Positions 12,341 to 12,519 of a stretch of 64,000 nucleotides of DNA are shown here, piece by piece (positions within the stretch are counted from its first letter, which is position 1; each line of letters begins with the position of its first letter). Source of the stretch: an uncultured bacterium (GTDB lineage Bacteria > Bacillota_I > Bacilli_A > RFN20 > CAG-826). A model generated the notes under the pieces. It saw only the letters and a list, made by a program, of their open reading frames with translations. It was not told the origin of the DNA and did no database searches. The position numbers and the translations under genes were made by a program. The DNA lies in the NCBI GenBank assembly GCA_949293255.1, contig CASFCL010000001.1:92105-156104 (forward strand). Reading direction: 5' to 3'.

Positions 12341-12519
12341 TTCTTGAAAATCTGAGGGGGATGATTCCCTCTCTTTTTATTTTATATATAATAACCTCTT
12401 TCTAAATGTTTCAAAATCTGCTTCCCATGACTAACTATTATTAGTTTTTCTTTTTTTGAAAATATAGGGAGATACATTTTTTCTAAAATCAAAATATTAC
12501 TCTCAAATTTGCAAGAGCC
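12341..12519. repeat. MITE-like repeat element, copy A (~180 bp, imperfect ~22-bp terminal inverted repeats)
   Basis: About 90% identical to copy B at 14465-14649. The ends TTCTTGAAAATCTGAGGGGG...CTCAAATTTGCAAGAGCC are reverse-complementary. The element contains an internal GAGGGGGATGATTCCCTCTC hairpin. Confidence 0.7.
12352..12385 (+). terminator. Rho-independent terminator-like hairpin followed by a T-run, embedded in the 5' end of MITE copy A
   Basis: GAGGG-loop-CCCTC stem followed by TTTTTATTTT, placed immediately downstream of the yneF stop. Confidence 0.45.

Follow-up and report, generated by a model that had tools for sequence, protein, structure and literature searches.

What are the two related repeats of about 180 bp that lie between the genes yneF and plsY in a 64-kb stretch of DNA from an uncultured bacterium (contig CASFCL010000001.1; 28.5% G+C; hereafter the window), and how did they come to enclose a 1.9-kb cassette of two genes? 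The first-pass annotation of this stretch had read them as a non-autonomous DNA transposon, that is, a MITE (miniature inverted-repeat transposable element), and this reading is supported by the match of both the ends and the interior of the repeats to an ISL3-family insertion sequence (IS). As an overall explanation we propose, with a probability of roughly 80%, that the repeats, termed copies A and B, are two diverged (~85% identical) copies of a miniature, transposase-less derivative of an ISL3-family IS that bracket the cassette.

The existence of two homologous units of about 180 bp was borne out by blastn, which pairs positions 12345-12522 with 14472-14652 (E = 2e-50), and by an nhmmer profile built from both copies, which matches them at E = 1e-52 and 7e-59 and detects no third copy in the window at E ≤ 10. 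Identity is lower than the ~90% first estimated, amounting to 154 of 182 positions (84.6%), and the alignment has 5 gap columns. The copies are direct repeats, with the IS orientation on the minus strand. No homology was found between the flanks outside copies A and B, and the pair is therefore not part of a larger segmental duplication. With its boundary corrected, copy A occupies 12339-12519 (181 bp). Copy B, previously thought to begin at 14465, starts about 55 nucleotides further left and extends over 14412-14649 (238 bp), because a decayed outer right-end repeat is retained in addition to the inner one. Over positions 14412-14471 the copy shows homology to the spacer and outer repeat at the right end of the parent IS described below (45/56; none of 300 shuffles reached this score). 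Copy A and the single-element (solo) alleles of other strains carry one right-end repeat only, with outer-type terminal bases (GTTTCTTG…).

The end motif that had been ascribed to both copies is present in copy B (CCCCCTCAAATTTTCAAGAA), whose right end reads …CCCCCTCAAATTTTCAAGAACC as earlier described, but not in copy A, which ends CTCTCAAATTTGCAAGAGCC and whose right end has decayed. Compared over 24 nucleotides, the terminal repeats match at 17/24 for A-left with A-right, 14/24 for B-outer with B-right, 19/24 in the solo allele, and 20/24 for A-left with B-right, making the outermost pair the best-preserved ends. The ends read GGGTCTTG, GGCTCTTG, GGTTCTTG and GTTTCTTG, and are GGCTCTT-like, as in the ISL3 family. 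The window holds no transposase, as first noted, and the sole tblastn matches are two 14-residue remnants inside copy A; at 181 and 238 bp without an intact transposase gene, both copies fall in the size range of MITEs. Two small open reading frames (ORFs) noticed by eye, of 5 codons (MTNYY) and, on the minus strand, 15 codons, were rejected as genes, as they lack a ribosome-binding site (RBS) and the second is not frame-conserved.

Two ISs carry the inverted repeats matching TTCTTGAAAAT.TGAGGGGG that the first-pass annotation had proposed as the mark of a partner: L084 (JGI Ga0183097_10006, transposase P0001) and L204 (Logan SRR29999953, transposase P0002). L084 was the one locus in a loose end-motif scan of JGI metagenomes to show two inverted matches 1.4 kb apart; other matches in the JGI metagenomes and viral contigs were mostly single and at chance level, and L157, L127, L120 and L155 were set aside as unrelated, eukaryote-like repeats. 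Between the inverted matches of L084 lies an ORF of 434 amino acids with the domain DDE_Tnp_ISL3 (PF01610, 2e-38) and a zinc ribbon (PF14690). This IS spans positions 958-2438 (1,481 bp end to end), has the ends GGGTCTTGAAAATGTAAGGGGGAT and, in reverse complement, GGCTCTTGAAAATCTGAGGGGG (short form GGGTCTTGAAAAT.../GGCTCTTGAAAAT...), and bears the 8-bp target duplication AAAAAGCT on both sides. Both its ends and its duplication are confirmed by a scaffold from another sample, L209, which carries the unoccupied site (…TTAAAAAAAGCT/ACCGAAG…). Positions 2860-3200 of L209 hold an occupied and an empty site of this type with N between them, indicating presence/absence heterogeneity in that population.

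The element profile matches the right end of L084 (E = 2e-8), and a homologue search with the L084 transposase returned P0002, which is 53% identical and has the same ISL3 domains. L204 matches the element at 88-91% over ~55 plus 116-174 nucleotides: its positions 1-55 are 89-91% identical to the left-end side of both copies, positions 1260-1375 are 91% identical to copy A, and positions 1260-1432 are 84.5% identical to copy B over 174 nucleotides (E = 2e-48), while its terminal 22-mer GGTTCTTGAAAATTTGAGGGGG equals the copy B right end at 100%. Moreover, the C-terminus of P0002, EKLIIVSHGITDFETFRKRLLYIR, is nearly equal to the minus-strand coding of copy A in two frames (EKLIIVSHG… and …DFETFRKRLLYIK followed by a stop). 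L084, L204 and the more distant L199-L201 are built to one plan. On the left, an outer terminal repeat is followed by a loop and by an inner copy of the repeat in inverted orientation; the transposase gene comes next, and on the right an inner repeat, overlapping a hairpin at the gene's end, is separated by a spacer of ~28 nucleotides from an outer repeat. Because P0002 shares no more than 28.5% identity with annotated ISL3 transposases borne on plasmids, this group represents a divergent ISL3 subgroup. The ISs of P0005 and P0006 are alike in architecture and were rejected as parents on account of their different end sequences.

The 16-mer TCAAAAA[A/T]AGAAAAAC occurs twice in L204 (27-42 and 1260-1275) and once in each window copy, exactly where the two halves join; the element is therefore an IS minus ~1.2 kb between short direct repeats. 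The founding event would have been the loss from a P0002-type IS of ~1.2 kb, nearly the whole transposase gene, between its two 16-nucleotide direct repeats. The part retained would be the two end modules, of which the left one comprises an outer terminal repeat, a loop and an inner repeat in inverted orientation, together with the final ~25 codons of the transposase. Copies A and B stem either from one deletion founder or from recurrent deletion at the same repeats. Movement of such a derivative would require a cognate ISL3 transposase acting in trans on the GG[T/C]TCTTGAAAATnTGAGGGGGAT ends, and insertion would duplicate 8 bp. The two copies comprise the following parts:

12339-12519, minus strand: MITE copy A, short form, 181 bp; 91% (106/116) and 89% (47/53) identical to the right and left ends of L204, respectively.
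12339-12362, plus strand: left terminal repeat of copy A, of the IS right-end type, GTTTCTTGAAAATCTGAGGGGGAT; 20/24 to the reverse complement of the copy B right end.
12354-12383, plus strand: hairpin GAGGGGGATGATTCCCTCTC followed by TTTTTATTTT, terminator-like, downstream of yneF (terminator scan; hairpin 12354-12373).
12380-12465, minus strand: remnant of the transposase 3' coding end, EKLIIVSHG and DFETFRKRLLYIK plus stop, from frame translations and tblastn with P0002 (residues 392-405 and 407-420, 86% each).
12444-12459, minus strand: deletion junction, one copy of the 16-nucleotide repeat TCAAAAAAAGAAAAAC that L204 has twice; same junction in A and B.
12496-12519, plus strand: right terminal repeat of copy A, of the IS left-end type, decayed, reverse complement GGCTCTTGCAAATTTGAGAGTAAT (end comparison).
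14412-14649, minus strand: MITE copy B, long form, 238 bp; L204 1260-1432 aligns with 14587-14415 and L204 1-55 with 14614-14561.
14412-14435, plus strand: outer right-end repeat of copy B, decayed, GAGCTTTAAAAATCTAAGGGAATA; 14/24 to the reverse complement of the B right end, homologous to the IS outer end.
14466-14489, plus strand: inner right-end repeat of copy B, AGAATCTGAAAATCCGAGGGGGAT, where cassette and solo alleles join (strain-allele alignment; inner/outer architecture of the IS group).
14481-14511, plus strand: hairpin GAGGGGGATGATTTCCCCTTC followed by TTTTTATTTT, terminator-like, downstream of gene 2 (terminator scan; hairpin 14481-14501).
14584-14649, plus strand: IS left-end module with inner repeat, loop containing G7 and T9, and outer terminal repeat (14626-14649); a long hairpin in the copy B fold, 22/24 to the L204 terminal repeat.

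Copy B does contain the G7 and T9 tracts noticed at first pass, at 14595-14601 and 14607-14615. Their lengths differ between strains (G5, G6 or G7 and T7, T8 or T9 in the window, L001-L004 and L216); these variable homopolymers sit in a noncoding IS-end loop with no obvious regulated gene, and sequencing or assembly error is possible.

Might the repeats never have been mobile, having arisen by local duplication of the native yneF-plsY spacer or as a two-copy gene for a small or regulatory RNA? The element, or at least its end modules, is found at this spacer in all sampled strains of the species but L010, and copy B folds well as RNA (z = -3.5 and -3.0), its left-end module forming a long hairpin. 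However, the fold of copy A is no better than that of shuffled sequence (z = -1.4), and homology to an ISL3 IS extends over both ends and the interior, including transposase coding remnants. A 6S-like or other structured RNA was rejected, as a search of the whole window against Rfam gave nothing at gathering thresholds and one of 12250-14750 at E ≤ 10 gave matches at chance level only. Furthermore, its ParE relatives put the organism among uncultured gut Bacilli/'Mollicutes' metagenome-assembled genomes (MAGs; Candidatus Onthovivens and the like, with ParE no more than 76% identical), and 18 of these related species with efp-yneF-plsY(-)-parE synteny have spacers without similarity to the element and hold no homologue of gene 1 or gene 2. 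Because it is missing from these syntenic spacers, the element is foreign to the site at the family level, and a non-mobile origin is very improbable. Equally improbable is a reading as attL/attR sites from integration of the cassette by a site-specific recombinase: direct repeats do surround an accessory cassette and the allele junction lies at a defined short sequence, but the cassette and its vicinity contain no recombinase gene, and the repeats are IS-derived over their full length and share 85%, not ~100%, identity.

If copies A and B are ISL3-derived MITEs, did they arrive separately or as one unit? The answer depends on the insertion site, which comprises the following features:

12113-12328, plus strand: yneF-like gene, UPF0154, 71 amino acids, the left neighbour (ORF list; PF03672 in Pfam for the identical protein of public contigs).
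12331-12338, unstranded: flanking 8 bp on the left, TAATAAAA, a candidate for target-site duplication around the whole unit; 7/8 to AAATAAAA.
14650-14657, unstranded: right 8-bp flank AAATAAAA (flank comparison).
14651-14683, unstranded: perfect 16-bp palindrome with A/T runs (inverted repeat), a bidirectional terminator shared with plsY, whose 5' shoulder is the insertion target.
14717-15478, minus strand: plsY, the right neighbour (ORF list; PF02660).

The genes yneF and plsY are convergent, with both copies between them; efp and rpmG lie upstream of yneF, and parE and parC downstream of plsY. The 8-bp flanks of the whole unit, and likewise of the solo element, match at 7/8, a level that random AT-rich 8-mer pairs reach in 0.4% of cases. 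In the reconstructed empty site the yneF stop lies ~10 nucleotides from the bidirectional terminator, as in several related species. As seen in two cases, this element and L084, which sits in the 5' shoulder of the hup terminator stem, the preferred target of the ISL3 subgroup is the A-rich shoulder of intrinsic terminators.

The related species (L011-L030; e.g. L027:4834-5098 and L017:1816-2043) share a strongly conserved spacer motif, GTCAAT-N-AAAAA-[CGCGAT…ATCGCG hairpin]-T7; beside the stop codon of plsY they carry a DnaA-box-like TTTTCCACA and, after it, 2-7 tandem TACTAGAAANN/TACTAATTATC units of ~11 nucleotides. Conservation of these two noncoding features exceeds that of the YneF protein (~55% identity).

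Two independent MITE insertions on either side of a pre-existing cassette, followed by A-B recombination to give the solo form, are a distinct if lesser possibility. The copies differ by 15% and in form, one short and one long, as separate family members would, and each has partly matching flanks of its own (6/8 for copy B, reached by 3% of random pairs; 5/8 for copy A, reached by 11%). Against this, the best flank match surrounds the whole unit (7/8, p~0.004), decay is greatest at the inner ends (14/24 and 17/24, versus 20/24 for the outer pair), and the cassette is at this site in no related species. The arrangement is that of a composite, with direct copies A and B bracketing genes 1 and 2, an outer pair matching at 20/24 and decayed inner ends.

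Further evidence on how this composite came and went is provided by other strains. Contigs of the same species were gathered from many samples through exact look-ups of YneF, gene 1 and PlsY, and have flanks 98.3-99.8% identical. The cassette allele is found in the window, L002, L008, L009, L202 and L214, and the solo allele, consisting of yneF, one element and plsY, in L001, L003, L004, L006 and L007. The solo element is a hybrid that has the left flank and terminal bases of copy A and then B-type sequence throughout. A single reciprocal crossover separates the two forms and falls inside TGAAAATC[C/T]GAGGGGGATGA, a tract 21/22 identical between the A left repeat and the B inner right repeat, and the segment gained or lost measures 2,127-2,128 bp. 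In a third allele (L005 with L216, L217 and L218), found in three samples from a strain 0.14% from the window strain, 27 nucleotides of right-end repeat and the last 83 nucleotides of the left-end module surround an unrelated segment X. This allele lies at L005:10217-10351, and L216, L217 and L218 join window position 14567; at least 194 nucleotides of segment X are seen, the contigs breaking 97 nucleotides in from each side, and close to its left-end side is an RBS pointing toward the right end. Segment X from L005 and L216 was rejected as part of an ISL3 transposase, with no match among all ISL3 transposases and the collected loci and a C-terminus unlike ISL3.

In a comparison of 10.2 kb of flanking sequence, the window differs from L005 by 0.14% and L001, L003 and L004 differ mutually by 0.15-0.37%, while L002, a cassette carrier, is 0.7% from these three and 1.2% from the window. 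Because the cassette lies on both sides of the deepest strain split and the solo alleles form one shallow, tight clade, a single loss of the cassette is favored over a gain. We infer that A-cassette-B (12339-14649) would have inserted as a single composite bounded by MITEs, its target being the A-rich shoulder of the plsY/yneF terminator, and that in one lineage recombination between the A left-end repeat and the B inner right-end repeat would then have deleted 2,127-2,128 bp to leave the solo hybrid MITE.

The same crossover can be read in the opposite direction, the preferred deletion reaction run backwards: a circle carrying an older long-form MITE and the cassette may have integrated, in an IS26-like or Campbell-type manner, at the end repeat of an ancestral solo MITE. 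Such a gain would account for two alleles that are the exact reciprocal products of one crossover in the 22-bp end repeat, for the good preservation of the solo MITE ends with their 7/8 flanks beside the decay of both incoming-MITE ends, and for the third allele, which likewise keeps only end modules around other DNA. We nevertheless consider it unlikely, as the flank tree favors loss and neither a circular form nor a second cassette location was seen, and we know of no targeted conservative reaction of this kind, as in IS26 translocatable units, for ISL3 transposases. A broader suggestion is that doubled-repeat ISL3 end modules serve as a fixed landing pad for swapped passengers. Strains 0.14-1.5% apart have three contents at this one site, between the same right-end (27-nucleotide) and left-end (83-nucleotide) modules, namely nothing (the solo MITE), the peptidase/lipoprotein cassette and segment X, and all allele junctions fall at repeat edges and not in the longest homology tract, which would point to transposase-mediated or repeat-targeted conservative exchange like that of IS26 translocatable units; we regard the landing pad as doubtful, more so than circle integration.

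Certain observations weigh against entry as an ISL3-derived composite followed by cassette loss. The crossover took place in a 22-bp tract despite a perfect 31-bp tract in mid-element, which is unexplained under plain homologous recombination. Inter-strain recombination could decouple the history of the locus from the flank tree, and the polarity of loss versus gain is therefore a matter of parsimony only. The target duplication is imperfect, and in AT-rich DNA copy B alone (6/8, p~0.03) may be an insertion of its own. No cognate transposase was seen in samples holding this species, and P0002 is known from a single 1,436-nucleotide contig of another sample. Just two copies of the element are known, at one locus: an exact 20-mer scan of 185,579 GTDB species genomes and a paired-end pattern scan of JGI metagenomes each gave 0 matches. 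A cassette with MITEs was not found at a second location, and the exact gene-1 look-up, a small sampling, gives this locus alone.

Copy B likewise had no blastn match in a plasmid database. The decay of the ends, together with the lack of near-identical copies, which would interrupt long assemblies across the locus (L001 comes from a 96-kb contig), suggests that there was no recent transposition burst, and the element appears to be immobile at present.

The yneF-plsY spacer is a hotspot of structural variation, and other strains show further differences there. At L002:12584-12681, strain-specific sequence follows …GCAATCCTTATAT next to plsY, and at L010:1455-1618 it starts directly after the yneF stop. 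In L004 (10441-10532), the sequence after the bidirectional terminator (…TCTCTTTTTTAT) turns to GTGTGACGGGCATG…, resembling the 5' end of a group II intron; this stretch, 90 nucleotides only, had no Rfam match at the gathering threshold.

The passenger of the composite is made up of two genes preceded by a hairpin:

12548-12576, plus strand: terminator-like hairpin (12548-12569) at the cassette start, outside the MITE (terminator scan).
12683-13726, plus strand: cassette gene 1, a 347-amino-acid secreted protein with weak papain-like/C39-like peptidase similarity.
13728-14372, plus strand: cassette gene 2, a 214-amino-acid putative lipoprotein (LLVGCG motif) with no family match.

The similarity of gene 1 is to Pfam Peptidase_C39_2 (E = 8e-4, below the curated cutoff), and its family is rare, with 11 homologues in 5.8 billion proteins. 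Gene 2, which had no match in a Pfam-type search, travels with gene-1 homologues in other genomes: the pair of putative peptidase and ~200-220-amino-acid partner recurs at 48-50% identity in L205/L206:5001-6686 and L207:1463-3174. These recurring pairs, in three other gut-bacterial contigs, stand in unrelated contexts with no MITE. At L213:7709-8028, which joins window position 12772, gene 1 is 5'-truncated and fused to a glycosyltransferase-8-like peptide fragment (…IIHFSTEFKPW…), the product of either a rearrangement or an assembly chimera.

A terminator scan of the region gave 10 terminator-like sites, versus 0.5 expected from shuffles. On the plus strand the right-end hairpin and T-run of the two copies lie 26 nucleotides past the yneF stop and 109 nucleotides past the gene-2 stop; the stem is mismatched in copy A (GAGGGGGATGATTCCCTCTC TTTTTATTTT), and copy B has the version GAGGGGGATGATTTCCCCTTC TTTTTATTTT. 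This hairpin and T-run probably end both the yneF and the gene-2 transcripts, judging from sequence. The promoter scan gave 20 matches versus 17.9 expected, with promoter-like hexamers in the cassette at chance frequency.

Taken together, the locus offers a worked example, from an uncultured small-genome lineage of gut Bacilli (Onthovivens-like MAGs), of IS decay to a MITE via deletion between short internal repeats, and of how two such relics let strains gain or lose an accessory gene pair. It also records a subgroup of ISL3 whose terminal repeats are doubled, and suggests that an IS-end hairpin may be reused as a terminator. The current understanding of MITEs is unchanged by these findings.

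How does the element compare with known systems? It resembles L204/P0002 and L084/P0001 in its terminal repeats, left-end hairpin module and inner and outer right-end repeats, and in the transposase 3' end (88-91% to L204); like L084, it is inserted at an A-rich terminator shoulder. Unlike these autonomous ISs, with transposases of 420-434 amino acids, it is without ~1.2 kb. MITE-bounded composite units are exemplified by MITE-flanked integrons and integron mobilisation units. As in composite units, passenger genes lie between two short IS-derived copies, the functional inverted pair would be formed by the outer ends, and a candidate duplication flanks the unit; in contrast to them, this duplication matches at only 7/8, and instead of resistance genes the passenger is a putative peptidase/lipoprotein pair. 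Correia and RUP elements have family-specific terminal repeats, a TA duplication and an IS630-type or unknown partner; the comparison first drawn with them stands as a likeness in kind, but not beyond it, given the ISL3 partner, the 8-bp duplication and the absence of sequence relation. SPRITE, too, derives from another parent family and is unrelated to the element in sequence. The layout of classical composite transposons is that described for Fig. 1C of PMC10969869. SPRITE, Correia and RUP are small intergenic inverted-repeat elements whose hairpins can act as Rho-independent terminators (PMC10969869), and both MITE hairpins as terminators and composite structures are standard themes (PMC10969869).

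Two described MITEs are likened to the element by description, not by sequence. In Microcystis aeruginosa PCC 7806, a 187-nucleotide MITE attributed to ISL3-family transposases has GGCTCTTCG ends and 8-nucleotide direct repeats (PMC11448079). Both it and the present element are non-coding, ~180-190 bp long and endowed with imperfect ISL3-type terminal repeats (GGCTCTT...) and stem-loop potential; unlike the Microcystis MITE, which is multi-copy across genomes and was seen to move, the present one is represented by two decayed copies at one locus in another phylum, and a sequence relation is not expected. Methanosarcina acetivorans has a 179-bp MITE in 6 copies, with ISMac21 of the ISL3 family as its partner (PMC3852290, table); its archaeal host and copy number differ, whereas the size class, the ISL3 partner, the inverted repeats of ~22 bp and the direct repeats of 7-8 bp are shared. 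Because ISL3-derived MITEs of this size have already been described, the element falls within a known class.

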